38,297 nucleotides of DNA, from assembly GCA_031422435.1 (NCBI GenBank), contig JANPLU010000023.1, positions 1 through 38,297 of the forward strand, given 5' to 3'. The position numbers and the translations under genes were made by a program. Numbering within the stretch: the stretch's first letter is position 1; the number at the start of each line of letters is the position of its first letter. Of the stretch, positions 2,054 to 21,510 are shown piece after piece. The stretch is from Acaryochloridaceae cyanobacterium VAR_48_metabat_390. Lineage in GTDB: Bacteria > Cyanobacteriota > Cyanobacteriia > Thermosynechococcales > Thermosynechococcaceae. The notes under the pieces are model-generated. The model was not told the DNA's origin, searched no databases, and saw only the letters and a list, made by a program, of their open reading frames with translations.

Positions 2054-4525
2054 TCAGAGAACGTCCCTCTCTCGCTTAACAGTGGCGCTTGTTTGTCCCA
2101 TTGAGGTGGATTTTAATTCAGCAAAGTCTGTCAGCACGCCAAAAATGAGCCAGATCGCCATCGGTCGCAGATACATACAGGCACGGAACGTCCCTGTTGC
2201 TGTAATCGCTTCAGGGGTGCGGAACTGAAGGCCATTGTCATAGATCTGCTGAACCACCGTTTCTGTTAGCTTAAAGGCTTCATCGCCCATGCCCATCTGG
2301 AGCAAAAAGGCCGCTAAGCCAAAGTTAATGCCCGTCCACACCTCAAGGGGATGAGTGGCATCCGGCTTTTCGGGGATGCCGCCAGGGCGCAGGCCATTGG
2401 CAGCGCCCAAGGTACCGTTGTTAAAGCTTAAAAAGCAGGTTTCGTAAACGGTTGTCAGCGTACTGCGAGTACAGTCCTCTGGCACCACATCCGGTAGAGA
2501 GAGCAGCCGCGCATAAAACTGACCGCAGAGCTGATCTGCCATTACGACATCTGACCCGCTGCCGCTGTCGAGACGGTAATACTGACCATTCCAGAGAGTC
2601 GCTTGGTATAAGGGGCGAGATTGACCTAGCCAGGTTTTGTAGGTGGTCATCTCATTGTCTACCTGCATACCCGTAGACTGAAGGACTTTCGCAATGGCGA
2701 TCGCCGCCTCAAGCGCCGCAATCCACAGCGCCCCACAGTAGGCACTAATGCCCTGAAGTCGCCAGTCATCAAAGGTCTGATCCGGTGCGCCAGAATTTTC
2801 GGGGATGCCGTCTCCGTCTTCATCAAAGGCTTTGAGATAGGCTAAAGCTGCTGTCACCGCAGGCCAGCACTCAGCCAAAAACTCCGTATCTTTACTGCCC
2901 GTGAGCAAGAAATTGCGGTAGACCAGCAGCACAAAGTCCGCAGGTAGATCTTTCCAAAGGTTGCAGTCTTGATAGCTGGTGTAGTTGGTTTTCTCCCACG
3001 GGTGTTCGTTGGGCGCACCTAAATCGTGGGGGGTCGCATTCAGGGCTTTGCGGAGCGCAAGGGGGCTTTCCACGCCAAGGGTATGGTAGTAGCCAATCAC
3101 GCGGGTGCGATCGTCGGCGGTGGGGATGGCTCTGGCAAAGGCTCGCATGACAGATTTGTCTAGCTCAGGCCACAGCATAAACAGCGCAAAGGAGCCGTAT
3201 AGCCGCACGTCTAAGCTCTCATACCAGCGGTAGTCTAAACACTCCAGTACTGCAAATTGACCGATGGGGTCGCGCTCATCACCAGCACTCCACAGCGCCC
3301 CGCCGCTGGTGAGATCGTACAGCTCGTTCATTAGTCCCATCTTGAAGCAGTCCGACAGGTCGGTACGGTCTAAAATCGGCTGCTGCCATGCCTGGATCTG
3401 GGTTTGCCAGTCTTGGTAGTGCTTGAGGCTGTGGCGCACCATTGACCAGGCGTTGTTGCCATTGCGTCCAAAAAAGTCGGTATAGCGACGGTAGTAGGGG
3501 ATGCCTTCCGCAAATTCGGTAATGGGAAAATCCCAGGCCACGACAAAGGGGATCTGCTGAGACTCGCCAGGGGCTAGGGTGATGCGAACGGCGATCGCCG
3601 CCCCAATTTGTTCCCCCGCCACCGCAGGCGTTTCATTGCCAATGTCTGTAAGAGAACCATCTTGAGCAAAGGTAGACCAGAGTTCGCTGCCGTCGCCAGC
3701 AGGGTTCCAGCGACTGTGGTAGAAGACCTCTTGTTTGTAGGGGGAGGCAAAAGTGGCGATCGCCCACTGTCCTTCTCCTTCTGCGACGGGCTGCTCTATG
3801 GACTGAGGGGTATGCCCTAAAATGCAACCAAACCGACCATGATCTTCAATGACCTGATTGAAGTTCCCTGCGCTTTCGCCAATGCGAGGCTGATACTCAT
3901 AGGCAGGGCTACCGTCGTCCCGCACTTCAACCACAGGGGATTTAAGGGCATTAGTAAACCAACCCACCATATTTTGCCAAGTCAGCAAAATGCTGAGGGT
4001 AATCGGTTCTGGGGTGGGGTTATAGAACGTCCAGGCGAAGACGGCGACGGGGTAGCTGGTGTCTTGATAGTTGTGGGGCAAAATGGGCGAAAACTGCTCA
4101 CAGGTAATCTGTGCCTGAAACACGTTTTCGTAAACAAACCAGCTTCGCGGGTAGAGCGCGTGGTAAGTGCCACCTGTTTCTAATGGGTACCACTGCCAGC
4201 TTTTGAGGGTGCCATCAGCAGCGGGTTCAGTAGAGAGGGCATAGGCTTGGGGGGTAGCGTCCCCAACCTGTTCAAAAACGCTGAACTGACAGGCAGGCAT
4301 GGTTTGAAACACATGTTCGCCGCCGTCAATGTGCCACAGGTTAAACTCCCCACGCGGGCTGCGCCCAAAGCAGCCAGCCCCAAAGCCACCCAGGGGTATT
4401 CCGTGCCAGGGGCCATCGTCTAGGTTGCTGGCGTAGCGGACGGTGTAGGGGTTGTCCCAGCCTTTACCAATCGGGCGATTCCAGGCGCAGGTGGGGATGT
4501 GGGGGGAAGGGTGCTGATTTGTCAT
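2054..4525 (-). CDS. GH116-family glycosyl hydrolase (non-lysosomal glucosylceramidase/beta-glucosidase-like)
   Basis: 823 aa with GIPLGGFGAG, LECLDYRWYESLDV, PHDLG, WKDL, PDQTFDDW, DQLCGQFY, EVWTG, FRTPEA and YLRPMAIW motifs of GBA2/GH116 enzymes. Confidence 0.9.
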   Translation of the reverse strand: MTNQHPSPHIPTCAWNRPIGKGWDNPYTVRYASNLDDGPWHGIPLGGFGAGCFGRSPRGEFNLWHIDGGEHVFQTMPACQFSVFEQVGDATPQAYALSTEPAADGTLKSWQWYPLETGGTYHALYPRSWFVYENVFQAQITCEQFSPILPHNYQDTSYPVAVFAWTFYNPTPEPITLSILLTWQNMVGWFTNALKSPVVEVRDDGSPAYEYQPRIGESAGNFNQVIEDHGRFGCILGHTPQSIEQPVAEGEGQWAIATFASPYKQEVFYHSRWNPAGDGSELWSTFAQDGSLTDIGNETPAVAGEQIGAAIAVRITLAPGESQQIPFVVAWDFPITEFAEGIPYYRRYTDFFGRNGNNAWSMVRHSLKHYQDWQTQIQAWQQPILDRTDLSDCFKMGLMNELYDLTSGGALWSAGDERDPIGQFAVLECLDYRWYESLDVRLYGSFALFMLWPELDKSVMRAFARAIPTADDRTRVIGYYHTLGVESPLALRKALNATPHDLGAPNEHPWEKTNYTSYQDCNLWKDLPADFVLLVYRNFLLTGSKDTEFLAECWPAVTAALAYLKAFDEDGDGIPENSGAPDQTFDDWRLQGISAYCGALWIAALEAAIAIAKVLQSTGMQVDNEMTTYKTWLGQSRPLYQATLWNGQYYRLDSGSGSDVVMADQLCGQFYARLLSLPDVVPEDCTRSTLTTVYETCFLSFNNGTLGAANGLRPGGIPEKPDATHPLEVWTGINFGLAAFLLQMGMGDEAFKLTETVVQQIYDNGLQFRTPEAITATGTFRACMYLRPMAIWLIFGVLTDFAELKSTSMGQTSATVKRERDVL

Positions 4526-17521: not shown

Positions 17522-18268
17522 CTAAATTCCCCCAAACCACTCATAACCTAGATCTTCCCAGTAGCCTTTGGTAGGCATGAGCTGATCCACTAGGGTAATT
17601 TGCGTTACCCACTTGCTTTGCTTATAGCCCAACTTAATCGGAGAAGCCAAGCGTAAAGGTGCGCCGTTATCAACCGAAAGAGGCCGACCATTTCTTTGAT
17701 AGGCTATCAGGGTTTGGGGGTGCAGCGACGAGGCTAAATCCCAGCTTTCATAATAGCCATCGGCAGACTTAAAGTAAACGTACCGAGCATTGGGCTTAGG
17801 TTTCGCCAGCAGTATCAAATCAGATAGCCGCACCCCGCCCCACTGCACAATCGCAGCCCAGCCCTCAACGCAGACGTGCTGAATCACCATAGAAGTGAGA
17901 GGCAGCGTTTGCAGGTCTGTCATGGATAGCTTCAGTGGACTGTTGACAGCGCCATTAATGGTGAGCTGAAACTTATTCGGGTCAATTTGTGGCGTTGCAT
18001 CAAAGGTATTAATCAGCAGCTTTTCATCCGGCTCAATGGCGCTGACAGGGAACTCCGGCACGGGTTTATTGCTAAGCATCAAGGCATTGAGGCTGGCATT
18101 GAGCGGGTCAAAAACCTTCCCAATCGGTTCAGACAATAGGGTGGTGCCGCAACCGCCCAGCAGTAGACCCAGCCCAGAGAACCCAGCCCCCTGAAGCATT
18201 TGGCGACGAGACAACCGATTTTGTAGCTGTAGATAATTGGCAAGCTGCTGATCAAACACGGCCTGCAC
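17522..18268 (-). CDS. Tat-exported molybdopterin-dependent oxidoreductase, sulfite-oxidase family (MsrP/YedY-like)
   Basis: Twin-arginine SRRQML followed by a hydrophobic stretch, HVCVEGW (Mo-ligating Cys), WGGVRL, NGAPLRL..PIKLGYKQSKW and GYWEDLGY. Start is GTG 18268 or 18259. Confidence 0.88.
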   Translation of the reverse strand: MQAVFDQQLANYLQLQNRLSRRQMLQGAGFSGLGLLLGGCGTTLLSEPIGKVFDPLNASLNALMLSNKPVPEFPVSAIEPDEKLLINTFDATPQIDPNKFQLTINGAVNSPLKLSMTDLQTLPLTSMVIQHVCVEGWAAIVQWGGVRLSDLILLAKPKPNARYVYFKSADGYYESWDLASSLHPQTLIAYQRNGRPLSVDNGAPLRLASPIKLGYKQSKWVTQITLVDQLMPTKGYWEDLGYEWFGGI

Positions 18269-18875
18269 CTCTCAAAAACATAGAGTTCACTAAGCGAAGT
18301 CCACCCACCTTCAGCGCCAAAACCGAGTGAAGGAACGTGAACAGTAAAACGGTAGGGACGGTAATAAAATGAACCGTTCGCAGGATTTGCCAACTTCCGA
18401 ATAAACCTGAGAGCCAAGCAAATTGAGCGGGTTTATACATCGCAAGGCCGCTAAAGATCGCCAATACCAGCACCGGAATAATGGCGGTATATACCAGCCG
18501 ATGCCATGCGTAGTTTTTGCGCTTAACGTTGTGGCTGCTTTGCAGCGCCTTAATATCTTGGCTATCCACAAACCGACGGTTCCAACGGCGTGTGAGAACT
18601 ATATATAGGCCATAGAGCAGCAGGTTAATGCAATAAAACCACATCACGGCAAAATGCCAGCTTCTGCCGCCCCCCAGCCAGCCCCCTAAGGTAAACGTGG
18701 ACGGAAATGTCCAGCCGCCTCTTCCCCCAAAGACTGGATTGGCGTTATAAATTTGCAGTCCGCTGCTGAGCATCAAAAATAGGCTGACAATATTAATCCA
18801 GTGAAAGATTTTTGCCAGCAATGCCTGACTGGGCTGCGATCGCCCTTTTTTGCGCACAGAATTTGGTGTATCCAT
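18252..18875 (-). CDS. di-haem cytochrome b/b6-domain membrane protein (partner of the molybdoenzyme)
   Basis: Four TM helices with candidate His haem ligands (IFHWIN, SWHFAV, TVHF, LHS) and SGLQIYNA. Overlaps the downstream gene. ATG 18875 is preferred over 18917. Confidence 0.85.
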   Translation of the reverse strand: MDTPNSVRKKGRSQPSQALLAKIFHWINIVSLFLMLSSGLQIYNANPVFGGRGGWTFPSTFTLGGWLGGGRSWHFAVMWFYCINLLLYGLYIVLTRRWNRRFVDSQDIKALQSSHNVKRKNYAWHRLVYTAIIPVLVLAIFSGLAMYKPAQFAWLSGLFGSWQILRTVHFITVPTVLLFTFLHSVLALKVGGLRLVNSMFLRGAGRV

Positions 18876-18885
18876 AGTGCCTATG

Positions 18886-19575
18886 TTAAAGCCCAAGCGT
18901 CGGGAAAAATGGTGCAAGCCAGAGCTGAATTTCGATATCCCAGCCGAAGAGCATGGCGATCACCGCCACAATAATCATGCCGCCACCAACCTTCTGCAAC
19001 AGCACACTGTGAGGGCGCAGCCGTAGAAACGATTGACCCAAGCGGCGACCTCCGTAGGCGATCGCCAGCAGCGGGAAGGCCGCACCCACACCGTAGGCCA
19101 GCAATAGCCCAAAGGCTCCGGCAATTTGGCTGGTCGTTGCGGCGATTACTAAAATTGCGCCCAAAACAGGGCCAGCACAGGGCGTCCAGAGTAAGCCAAG
19201 CTGAGTCCCTAGCCAAAATTCCCCTGTTAAACCCACGCGCTTTGACTCGCCCCAATGAGCAATGGGTAAAGTGCTAAACAGTCGGTAGCTCCAAGCAGGA
19301 AACAGCGTGAGCAACCCTAAAATCAGCAGCGCCATTACAGCGAACATTCGTAACCCATTGGTCAAACCCGTGAGCCAGTTCGCCGTAATCCCTAATAGAC
19401 TGCCCGCTACCGCAAAGCCCCCCACTAACCCTGCCACCAAAGCGACCGGACCAAGACGGTGGGATTGAAGCGATCGCCCTACCACAATCGGCAAAATGGG
19501 CAGCACACAGGGAGAAAGTACCGTCAAAATTCCGCCAGCAAATGCAAGCCCAATCGAAGGCGTAAGTGCTGCCAT
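18886..19575 (-). CDS. ccdA: CcdA/DsbD-type transmembrane thiol-disulfide electron transporter
   Basis: LSPCVLPILP and WTPCAGPVLGAIL motifs; about 6 TM helices. Confidence 0.88.
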   Translation of the reverse strand: MAALTPSIGLAFAGGILTVLSPCVLPILPIVVGRSLQSHRLGPVALVAGLVGGFAVAGSLLGITANWLTGLTNGLRMFAVMALLILGLLTLFPAWSYRLFSTLPIAHWGESKRVGLTGEFWLGTQLGLLWTPCAGPVLGAILVIAATTSQIAGAFGLLLAYGVGAAFPLLAIAYGGRRLGQSFLRLRPHSVLLQKVGGGMIIVAVIAMLFGWDIEIQLWLAPFFPTLGL

Positions 19576-19583
19576 CGATCCCG

Positions 19584-20183
19584 CTACCCTAAAAGTCGAC
19601 GAATGGTTTGCTCCGTGGCGTCATAAGCACCTTCTCCAGTATGGCTATAGCGCAATATGCCTTGGCGATCGGCAAGATAGAGGTTAGGCCAATACTGATT
19701 GCTGTAGGCACTCCAGGTTTTGAAAGCATTGTCTAACGGCACAGGGTAGGTAATCTGGTTCTTTTGTAAGGCGCGTTTAACGTTATTGGCGTCTCGCTCA
19801 TAGCCAAATTCAGGGGTGTGTACCCCAATCACTTTTAATCCCTTTGCCGCATACTGTCGGTGCCAACGCACAATATAAGGCAGCGTTCGCTGACAGTTAA
19901 TGCAGCTAAACGTCCAAAACTGCACCAGCACCACTTGGCCTTTGAGATTGGCGATCGTCAAGGGTGACGCATTCAGCCATTCACTAATGCCCTGAAACTC
20001 CGGCAGCGTTTTTTGCGGCAAGGCCGCAAGGGCTGAATCCATCGAAGCGGATGGTGGGCTCAAACGATTGACAGAAATAGTATCCTTTGAGCGTAGGCCA
20101 TAAGCTGTCGCAGCGCCCGCGCCAGTTACGCCCAAGCCTAAATAGAGGAGCATTTTTCGCCTATTCAGCAGCGTTTTATTCAT
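19584..20183 (-). CDS. exported thioredoxin-like protein (DipZ/TlpA-type)
   Basis: From ATG 20183: NRRKML twin-arginine-like signal, FWTFSCINC (CxxC), GVHTPEF, YWP and GEGAY, as in the DipZ thioredoxin domain. The ORF is open to 20264. Confidence 0.88.
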   Translation of the reverse strand: MNKTLLNRRKMLLYLGLGVTGAGAATAYGLRSKDTISVNRLSPPSASMDSALAALPQKTLPEFQGISEWLNASPLTIANLKGQVVLVQFWTFSCINCQRTLPYIVRWHRQYAAKGLKVIGVHTPEFGYERDANNVKRALQKNQITYPVPLDNAFKTWSAYSNQYWPNLYLADRQGILRYSHTGEGAYDATEQTIRRLLG

Positions 20184-20302
20184 ATTAAAAATATCTGTAT
20201 AAGAAAAAGGCAGTAGATTTTTTAGGAGATGAAGTGGGGGGCGTGGAGGGCGATCGCTACGCATCCAAAGTCCGCATTCATCCCCTATCCCATTTCTAAT
20301 CG

Positions 20303-20623
20303 CTACTGACCTTTCATCATAGAATCGTCTTTTTTCATCATAGAATCGCCTTTCATCATGGATCCATCTTTTTTCATCATGGAGTTGTGCTGCATCATCT
20401 TGGACGGCGTAAGCCTAGATGAATAGCAATACAGATTCACTTCATTGTTATGGCGATAACAGTGCTTTCCCTTCATCTGCGTTTGGCTCAGCGTATATCC
20501 AGGGGGCATAGTAGACCCAGCCAACGCCGCAGTACCAGAACTTAAAAGTCCAATACCGACAACAGATGCACCCATAAATGCACCAAGAATCGTTGATTTG
20601 AAGATGCGATGAGTCATGTTCAT
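20303..20623 (-). CDS. small exported methionine-rich repeat protein (MXKDX-like)
   Basis: Signal peptide ending …TAALA and C-terminus KMMQHNSMMKKDGSMMKGDSMMKKDDSMMKGQ. Confidence 0.8.
   Translation of the reverse strand: MNMTHRIFKSTILGAFMGASVVGIGLLSSGTAALAGSTMPPGYTLSQTQMKGKHCYRHNNEVNLYCYSSRLTPSKMMQHNSMMKKDGSMMKGDSMMKKDDSMMKGQ
20309..20400 (-). repeat. coding tandem repeat (18-21-bp units; five MM pairs, four of them in SMMK)
   Basis: On the + strand TTTCATCAT(A/G)GA occurs four times, plus one degenerate unit (GCATCATCT). Confidence 0.85.
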
Positions 20624-20653: not shown

Positions 20654-20720
20654 ATTCTAAAAACGCTTCCTTAAAACCAACGCGCAAAATCCTGAGGAAG
20701 AGATTAGAAAGCCCTGAGGA
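20654..20720 (-). promoter_or_regulatory. candidate promoter of the Met-rich/MsrP-like operon with phased direct repeats
   Basis: CCTGAGGA at 20691 and 20713 (22 bp apart), with a degenerate TTAGAA midway (11-bp period). A minus-strand TAGAAT -10-like hexamer lies at 20654-20659. Confidence 0.45.
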
Positions 20721-21123: not shown

Positions 21124-21510
21124 ATGACATTAGCGCAAGTGCAAGAATTACCTAAAAATCAGGCTGTCAGAACGGTCAGAAGCTTCTTGATATGGACTTT
21201 CACTTTAACGGTATGTTGGCTGGTTGTCGGTTTTCCACTGGTTTTCTTAATTACGACCATCGGCTCTCTGTTTGCAATTTCCCTTCAGGCTATTTTGCCC
21301 ACAAGTGCTGTTTTAGTCGTAGCAGGAGCTATTTTATCTATTAACGTTTTGGTAATCTTATTTGGCGCTGGGCTTCTAACCCTTAAAGGCATCCATCCCC
21401 ATGAAGTGCAGTGGCTGCGCTGGCTCAATGGGCAAGCAAACCCCAGTCATGGATCCGTTTTTGCGTCTTGCCCTCTGACCTGTGAGCGTCCTTCTGTAGA
21501 GCGTCATTAA
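21124..21510 (+). CDS. cyanobacterial hypothetical membrane protein
   Basis: Strong RBS (GGGAGGA), long hydrophobic core, GIHPHEV.WL.WL and C-terminal SCPLTC; followed by a terminator. Confidence 0.85.
   Translation: MTLAQVQELPKNQAVRTVRSFLIWTFTLTVCWLVVGFPLVFLITTIGSLFAISLQAILPTSAVLVVAGAILSINVLVILFGAGLLTLKGIHPHEVQWLRWLNGQANPSHGSVFASCPLTCERPSVERH

Follow-up and report, generated by a model that had tools for sequence, protein, structure and literature searches.

A five-gene cyanobacterial operon as the probable core of an envelope methionine-redox defence with two re-reduction chains

Why would a cyanobacterium line up, in a single run, genes for a methionine-rich (Met-rich) exported protein, an exported thioredoxin, a membrane electron transporter, a cytochrome b and a molybdenum (Mo) enzyme? 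This question is raised by positions 17522..20623 of a 38,297-nt stretch of DNA (contig JANPLU010000023.1; hereafter the window) from Acaryochloridaceae cyanobacterium VAR_48_metabat_390, whose genome we call G000 and whose contigs we number with a C. A first-pass annotation, made from the letters alone, had proposed a self-contained envelope scavenge-and-recycle system of the MrpX/YedY kind, and homology and synteny support such a system. We consider it fairly probable that the five genes form the operon at the core of a methionine-redox defence of the envelope, with two re-reduction chains. The Met-rich protein would serve as a sacrificial sink whose methionine tail is oxidised by external oxidants, and methionine sulfoxide would then be reduced by one chain running from quinol through the cytochrome b to the Mo enzyme, and by a second running from cytoplasmic thioredoxin through CcdA and the exported thioredoxin to an exported methionine sulfoxide reductase (Msr), the MsrA encoded on contig C24 and probably also the MsrB on C64. 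The five genes would be read as one transcript, with all products exported, and would be activated, together with the C24 msrA, by an OmpR-family two-component pair acting through an upstream repeat. The locus comprises:

20303..20623, minus strand: Met-rich exported protein of 106 amino acids (aa), with a leader-like stretch at 1-35, a head of about 30 residues (C55/C66) and a variable SMMK/KDD tail
19584..20183, minus strand: twin-arginine thioredoxin, the apparent equivalent of the DipZ thioredoxin domain; twin-arginine (RR) leader, WTFSCINC; PF00578/PF08534 above cut-off
18886..19575, minus strand: CcdA/DsbD-type membrane electron transporter; PF02683 above cut-off; Cys23, Cys133
18252..18875, minus strand: Ni/Fe-hydrogenase-type cytochrome b (the 'YedZ1' partner of reversed-order yedZY operons); PF01292 above cut-off
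17522..18268, minus strand: YedY/MsrP-type single-domain molybdopterin oxidoreductase, a predicted twin-arginine translocation (Tat) lipoprotein; PF00174 above cut-off; RR leader and LLGGC40
20692..20719: predicted OmpR-family response regulator site, a three-unit direct repeat with an 11-bp period, CTGAGG-n5-ATTAGA-n5-CTGAGG on the plus strand (CTCAG on the coding strand)

The open reading frames (ORFs), their Pfam matches and their spacing (119, 8, 10 and -17 bp in order) bear out the first-pass description of five co-oriented, nearly abutting envelope genes. Its family assignments likewise came through for the four redox proteins, while the Met-rich protein did not match the MXKDX pentapeptide model TIGR02953. 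For the thioredoxin a longer ORF, beginning at 20264, is available; alignment with relatives favours the start at 20183, and the RR pair is invariant in 26 of 26 aligned sequences. Export signals (RR leaders, lipobox and signal-like leaders) were judged by eye, and the lipobox of the Mo enzyme favours the periplasm over the lumen as the predicted compartment.

The Mo enzyme and cytochrome b point to a known kind of module. The cytochrome b gene lies upstream of the Mo-enzyme gene, reversing the msrP-msrQ order, and yedZ before yedY is the mark of the horizontal gene transfer (HGT) clade of YedY (PMC4436054); a linked small exported Met-rich protein (14% Met, leader by eye), frequent in that clade, is also present. 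The Mo enzyme, the sole PF00174 protein of its genome, has 248 aa and lacks the inserts and C-terminal part of MsrP. It is 32% identical to c3567 of CFT073 (E 4e-38), compared with 30% to E. coli MsrP (E 4e-23), and the MsrP model NF003767 gives it 92.4 bits and c3567 71 bits, both below the cut-off of 207. Its Cys133, which we take to be the Mo ligand, aligns with the CVE motif of MsrP. All of 15 cyanobacterial homologues keep the RR pair, and conservation of the lipobox-like Cys40 among them is at least 90%. The cytochrome b is 36% identical (E 5e-36) to an orthologue from an E. coli plasmid (L056), with which it shares His25, 74, 169 and 183 and the best NCBIfam model; it gave no alignment with E. 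coli MsrQ. The earlier impression of a hydrogenase-type cytochrome rather than MsrQ therefore stands, whereas the peculiarity attached to it does not, as this type appears to be the normal partner within the HGT clade. A 17-row PF00174 tree, built after an earlier one with a single outgroup, groups the cyanobacterial enzymes together (96/99) and leaves the deeper forks open; against HGT-clade membership, a grouping of these enzymes with MsrP was not rejected (p-AU 0.32). Because this tree left the deep placement unsettled, the case for membership is made by the gene order, the cytochrome partner and the pairwise scores, by which the module is best classed as a reversed-order HGT-clade yedZ-yedY-mrpX system. 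Relative to E. coli MsrPQ, it shares the Mo-domain family, the CVE Cys motif, the RR leader and a membrane cytochrome partner, and differs in its score (92 of 207 bits), in having the two genes in the opposite order, in a cytochrome b unrelated to MsrQ and in its predicted lipoprotein nature. Sulfite dehydrogenase, which the first-pass annotation had named as an activity that would overturn its reading, is very unlikely: the SorA/SorT/SoxC models give 26-63 bits against cut-offs of 420-600, and 248 aa is short beside the 365-474 aa of solved sulfite oxidases. The genome encodes the Mo cofactor genes and TatC.

The characterised members of the HGT clade are the Azospira suillum SigF regulon (PMC4436054), Brucella bcrXQP (PMC8315932) and c3566-c3568 of uropathogenic E. 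coli (UPEC) under OrhK/OrhR (PMC8550376). All three papers give genetic support for oxidant defence, and each terms the reductase putative; by analogy with the proposal made for this clade, methionine sulfoxide would be the substrate of the Mo enzyme here. Common to these systems and ours are the cytochrome b gene ahead of a short YedY-type Mo enzyme, the hydrogenase type of the cytochrome, the small exported Met-rich protein and, here in relatives, an adjacent extracytoplasmic function (ECF) sigma factor pair or two-component control. Unlike them, the present operon includes a split DipZ, its regulator genes are dispersed in this genome, and its Met-rich protein is, in contrast to MrpX, non-MXKDX with a Cys-pair head. 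According to PMC4436054, HGT-clade yedY is often linked to mrpX, thioredoxins and msrA/B, plus SigF/NrsF or a histidine kinase system, and Data Set S4 of that paper (2015) already holds ten cyanobacterial entries, including Cyanothece PCC 7822 (Cyan7822_1372, with mrpX, msrA and thioredoxins) and Gloeobacter (gll1153, with mrpX). The first-pass statement that no description existed for cyanobacteria is thus right for experiments and wrong for the association itself. Within the literature covered, with subscription papers and bioRxiv supplements (which may hold predictions of Rre28 targets) outside its scope, we found no experimental study of the operon or motif in cyanobacteria, no report of a CTGAG repeat and no Rre28 regulon. 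A split msrP-like gene in Limnospira is described as repressed by gamma rays (PMC8400943).

Is the arrangement conserved? We surveyed species genomes and compared the best 80 of at least 557 confirmed relatives, in records nearly all titled cyanobacteria; 15 of the 80 loci have less than 4 kb of upstream sequence, and some contigs are short. Mo-enzyme matches occur in 20 of 41 genomes searched (the window's own included; that of G040 is weak, at 35%). The cytochrome b is present in 66 of the 80 loci, thioredoxin and CcdA together in 28, and msrA/B within 7 kb in 11. In 23 the genes follow the order Met-rich protein, (DM13), thioredoxin, CcdA, (MsrA), cytochrome b, Mo enzyme, so the gene arrangement is not due to chance. 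We thus see in the operon a unit that recurs among cyanobacteria and whose thiol arm can be separated from the rest.

That separability also counts against treating the five genes as one indivisible system. The thioredoxin-CcdA pair is missing from 52 of the 80 loci, and from 41 of the 65 with 4 kb upstream; in G009 the cytochrome b and the Mo enzyme are retained, whereas the Met-rich gene is broken and a thioredoxin match is absent; and G004 carries msrA without the other genes. From these losses we conclude that the two arms are separable. The compared genomes are kin, and hence not independent, which weakens all such counts; moreover, the case as a whole rests on genes, families, synteny and a shared repeat, with activity, transcription and binding predicted. 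At L027:7400-8000 (G009:C1:1301400-1302000), the broken Met-rich gene lies just 5' of the cytochrome b gene, with the promoter repeat intact and trx/ccdA absent; the thiol arm appears to have been deleted in this complete genome. Among other variants, 4 of the 80 loci have a DM13 gene within the operon, L039:4183-9626 places the cytochrome b-Mo enzyme pair within a Mo cofactor biosynthesis cluster (moaA, C, D, E, moeA), and L033:8980-9582 and L034:9141-9749 carry thioredoxin variants 3' of the Mo gene in which CSVC replaces CINC.

What, then, does the thiol arm reduce? The thioredoxin has a DipZ-type domain with CINC, and its best solved relative is DipZ (E 2e-43), followed by SOQ1 (1.6e-20). 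It does not form one chain with CcdA, the two being separate ORFs 8 bp apart and likewise separate in related loci. Because DipZ is the closest solved relative, the pair is best read as a split DipZ. It shares the CcdA-thioredoxin pairing with M. tuberculosis DipZ and differs from it in being two genes in thioredoxin-CcdA order, the thioredoxin ending where the DipZ thioredoxin domain ends. The genome has two ccdA copies, that of the operon being 34% identical to a housekeeping copy at G000:C55. The cluster itself contains no msrA or msrB, as the first-pass annotation had observed. Elsewhere the genome encodes three MsrA and two MsrB proteins, four of them with N-terminal export-like leaders, including the C24 MsrA and the C64 MsrB. 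The former (G000:C24:3441-4136, L140) has a copy of the repeat upstream, at 3365-3392. In relatives, msrA sits between ccdA and the cytochrome b gene (L065, L066, L072, L089 and L148 of the same-genus genome G008) or directly 3' of the Mo gene. Among the three MsrAs of this genome, 9 of 9 neighbouring MsrAs match the C24 protein best (55-61%), so that its orthologues stand beside or inside the operon in 9 of the 80 loci, and 3 of 3 neighbouring MsrBs best match that at G000:C64. The exported C24 MsrA is therefore the likely target of the thioredoxin, its gene likely a displaced operon member, and the C64 MsrB probably a second target of the thiol arm. Because the C24 MsrA is orthologous to the in- or beside-operon MsrA of relatives and shares the upstream repeat, the operon is likely not self-contained, contrary to the first-pass annotation.

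Electron transfer from thioredoxin to MsrA would have precedents. In Bradyrhizobium japonicum, the EcfF regulon co-regulates the DsbD-beta protein Bll1027, the periplasmic thioredoxin Bll1026 and exported Msr, including periplasmic Blr7043, and Bll1026/Bll1027 are proposed by the authors as the electron path to it (PMC3420878); according to Text S1 of PMC4436054, an HGT-clade yedY and a Met-rich peptide belong to this regulon too. Its genes are scattered and under an ECF sigma factor, whereas here five stand in one run with a predicted OmpR-family pair. In Streptococcus pneumoniae, CcdA and an exported thioredoxin likewise feed an extracytoplasmic Msr (CcdA-Etrx-MsrAB2; PMC3914529); the abstract names no Mo enzyme or Met-rich sink, and here MsrA and MsrB are separate unlinked genes.

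Met-repeat genes are found in 25 of the 28 loci with thioredoxin and CcdA and in 2 of the 52 others, a comparison for which the repeat rule was relaxed after a first pass and the kin are not independent. It follows that the thiol arm may do most of the recycling of the sink. The same comparison lends itself to a different division of labour, in which the substrate reduced by the cytochrome b-Mo enzyme pair is a small S- or N-oxide (free methionine sulfoxide or one like dimethyl sulfoxide) or the pair does another redox job, the Met-rich protein is recycled through MsrA/MsrB alone, and the arms are merely co-regulated. The Met-repeat gene does track thioredoxin and CcdA far more closely than the cytochrome b-Mo pair alone, the identity of the Mo enzyme to MsrP is only about 30%, the inserts and C-terminal part of MsrP are missing from it, and in the literature on the HGT clade we found no in vitro assay. 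However, the proteobacterial pair is co-transcribed with a Met-rich gene in systems without trx/ccdA and has hypochlorous acid (HOCl) or peroxide phenotypes in the reports cited above, and L041 has a Met-repeat gene directly 5' of the cytochrome b gene with no thioredoxin or CcdA in the locus. We judge this division of labour unlikely, and retain the reading in which both chains serve the sink.

The putative sink is itself unusual. Of its 106 aa, 15 are Met, 10 of them within the last 32 residues, and it matches nothing in Pfam or NCBIfam. Fifty-two homologues share the leader, the head and a variable SMMK tail; the two cysteines pointed out by the first-pass annotation, C55 and C66, are invariant in all 53 aligned sequences. 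Of 9 same-genus genomes, 8 contain the family, as against none of 31 genomes from outside the genus. In most other cyanobacterial loci the same slot is taken by an unrelated GDAMK-repeat lipoprotein without the Cys pair, and 3 of 3 cyanobacterial head-of-operon proteins tested pass TIGR02953 (53-89 bits, cut-off 41). By these comparisons, the Met-rich protein looks to be a genus-restricted replacement of the usual MXKDX lipoprotein. In a structure model the head forms three short strands (pLDDT 86-88), with C55 and C66 on neighbouring strands, and the tail has no confident structure. A fold search of the head model against 48,161 chains gave none with Z of at least 2, which is uninformative for so small a domain, and an ESM Atlas search with the head gave no usable match. 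The head, MPxGYxxSxxxxxGxHCY...YYCY over about 30 residues and previously undescribed, also occurs on the secreted proteins P0061, P0062, P0068, P0069, P0073 and P0078, which are Met-poor with unrelated low-complexity tails; P0073 carries two copies. The single named case among these Met-poor proteins is cyanobacterial.

Could the Cys pair be what the thioredoxin reduces? The first-pass annotation had suggested so, and the operon would then be self-contained after all. Both cysteines are invariant and, in the model, occupy neighbouring strands, the CINC thioredoxin is related to SOQ1, and the Met-rich gene of G009 is broken just where trx and ccdA are missing. In plant SOQ1, the thioredoxin domain relays to a Cys pair in a C-terminal domain with Msr activity (10.1101/2024.11.01.621559), so a redox role of the head is conceivable; in its boldest form, the head would itself be redox-active like the SOQ1 relay. 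Yet the Cys-head protein occurs in 2 of the 80 loci against 28 with thioredoxin and CcdA, most of which have head-less lipoproteins; the loss in G009 can be explained by a single deletion event; and the gene physically inserted after ccdA in relatives is msrA. Because the head recurs on Met-poor secreted proteins, a structural disulfide is favoured, and likely. We regard reduction of the head by the thioredoxin as very unlikely, and give equally little credence to a redox-active head that makes the sink self-recharging; the exported C24 MsrA remains our likely target.

How might the dispersed members be brought together? CTCAG repeats were first spotted by eye; a Gibbs search, trained on 24 upstream regions of other cyanobacterial loci with the closest loci (L057 and L058) left out, then gave a CTGAGA motif within a three-unit repeat of 11-bp period, scoring 233 against 131-152 in three shuffled sets (single-base shuffles). 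Within the window, the pattern matches nowhere but at 20692..20719. Across the genome, the top-scoring of 7,398,338 positions lies upstream of C24 msrA. Among non-coding matches by position, the operon site stands 13th, that of a sensor kinase gene (G000:C20:21894-23426) 15th and that between a DM13 gene and its divergent neighbour 16th. Ranked by upstream region among 3,203 ORFs, C24 msrA is 1st, the operon 2nd and the kinase gene 5th with the strand fixed afterwards; on either strand, they are 1st, 5th and 8th, and the DM13 site 11th. The repeat precedes the Met-rich gene in 9 of 9 copies scanned (window included), on the same strand and at similar distance, kinase orthologues in 4 of 4 cases, and, strongly, msrA in 6 of the 8 loci from the genus, that of the window genome among them (one miss is an in-operon copy).

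Direct repeats with an 11-bp period are typical of OmpR-family sites. A candidate OmpR-family regulator is encoded at G000:C123:51790-52467 (290 bits to the NblR model, cut-off 300); the C20 kinase resembles heavy-metal sensor kinases (214 of 292 bits, under the cut-off). Orthologues of the regulator (77-84% to C123) or of the kinase (39-48% to C20) occur in 10 of the 80 loci, and the two genes are adjacent in G005 and dispersed in the window genome. The regulator is probably Rre28: compared with Synechocystis Rre28 (sll0396), length (225 vs 224 aa), position of the single Cys (66 vs 65), C-terminus (GYTLRG vs the primer-encoded GYVLRD; PMC4361706 for the Rre28 values) and status as an NblR paralogue all agree. 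A 2026 network study (10.64898/2026.06.09.731130) describes Rre28 as an NblR homologue of undefined function and lists it as an experimental priority. In our main reading, the C20 kinase and C123 regulator would activate the operon, the C24 msrA and the kinase gene through the CTGAG repeat. We also offer a more far-reaching proposal, to which we give somewhat less than even weight: the operon, the exported msrA and the kinase gene would form the regulon of an Rre28-like system, which would be the cyanobacterial sensor of methionine oxidation in the envelope and would bind the CTGAG 11-bp repeat.

Several results tell against this regulon. Both the strand criterion and the relaxation of the Met-repeat rule date from after the initial results, and the shuffles were of single bases; 5 of 9 pre-listed targets went unranked (both msrB, the two other msrA genes and the regulator gene, 298th); outside the genus the repeat precedes msrA in just 1 of 7 loci; and because 31 of 41 genomes carry the regulator, many without the operon, it must have other targets. 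Further, a SigK/RskA pair lies nearby in 4 of the 80 loci and in 3 of 20 examined first, and a SigK-type promoter element, CATCC-N16-CCGTA, was seen before L104, L112, L118 and L087. Such pairs thus flank the operon in some cyanobacteria, which recalls M. tuberculosis, where dipZ belongs to the SigK regulon. For the operon studied here SigK control was rejected: a loose SigK-type pattern has 118 matches in the genome and none upstream of the operon, though three RskA genes exist. Enumeration of bipartite promoter words found nothing, and sigma-70 and terminator scans stayed at chance level (6 vs 5.8 and 5 vs 5.0). The operon seems to change regulators between lineages, like its proteobacterial version.

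The likeness of the kinase also bears on a metal-centred explanation, in which binding of Cu(I)/Ag(I) would be the main role of the Met-rich protein and the operon would serve in metal stress or in the maturation of cytochrome c. Exported segments rich in Met are Cu(I) binders elsewhere, and CcdA/ResA-type proteins function in cytochrome c maturation. Here, however, a separate ccdA exists at C55, and among 122 neighbour proteins scanned there is no recurring copper transporter or cytochrome c gene, whereas msrA/B recur. This explanation, taken together with the sulfite dehydrogenase discussed above, has in our view the slimmest chance, and methionine-redox defence is the reading we keep. The oxidant would be external, with reactive chlorine and peroxide as candidate inducers. 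Chlorite dismutase, to which Msr systems have been linked (PMC9751292), was not found in the genome, so no internal source of chlorite is indicated.

Some neighbouring observations complete the picture. The regulator gene stands behind DoxX-like and DUF4079 genes (G000:C123:51790-53724, L137), and in L032 a DUF4079 gene adjoins the operon and a SigK/RskA pair. The DM13 protein (G000:C80:7973-8586, L139) has a DAMMKK stretch; the repeat lies between its gene and a divergent gene for a 769-aa membrane protein, so the 11th rank of this lipoprotein gene as a candidate regulon member belongs to a site that faces the divergent gene. At G000:C81:12931-15283, an RskA-like gene precedes an ECF sigma gene, and the 460 bp that separate it from a divergent gene for a small secreted protein hold three GATC[CT]-N15/16-CCGTAC elements, from its sequence clearly a SigK-type autoregulated locus; before a third sigma/RskA pair (G000:C96:28711-30974) lies a secreted protein that has a short stretch rich in Met. 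In the window, genes on one flank, which we take to be asd, dapA and RNase J, are outside the operon unit, and a divergent 128-aa membrane protein (21124-21510), without a Pfam or NCBIfam match and kept in position in same-genus loci, is host context rather than part of the operon.

Collectively, the chemistry has precedents, each part and most of the pairings have been published, and a specialist would hardly be surprised by the operon on its own. New are a named target for the thiol arm, a candidate DNA site, with a set of targets, for a regulator widespread in cyanobacteria, and a non-homologous Met-rich protein that appears to have taken the MrpX slot in one genus, with an undescribed small head that is likely a disulfide. 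Oxygenic phototrophs face strong oxidants at the cell surface. If the regulon reading is true, Rre28 would gain a first binding site and a first function, and cyanobacteria would have an extracytoplasmic oxidant sink that is inducible and is recycled by two independent arms.

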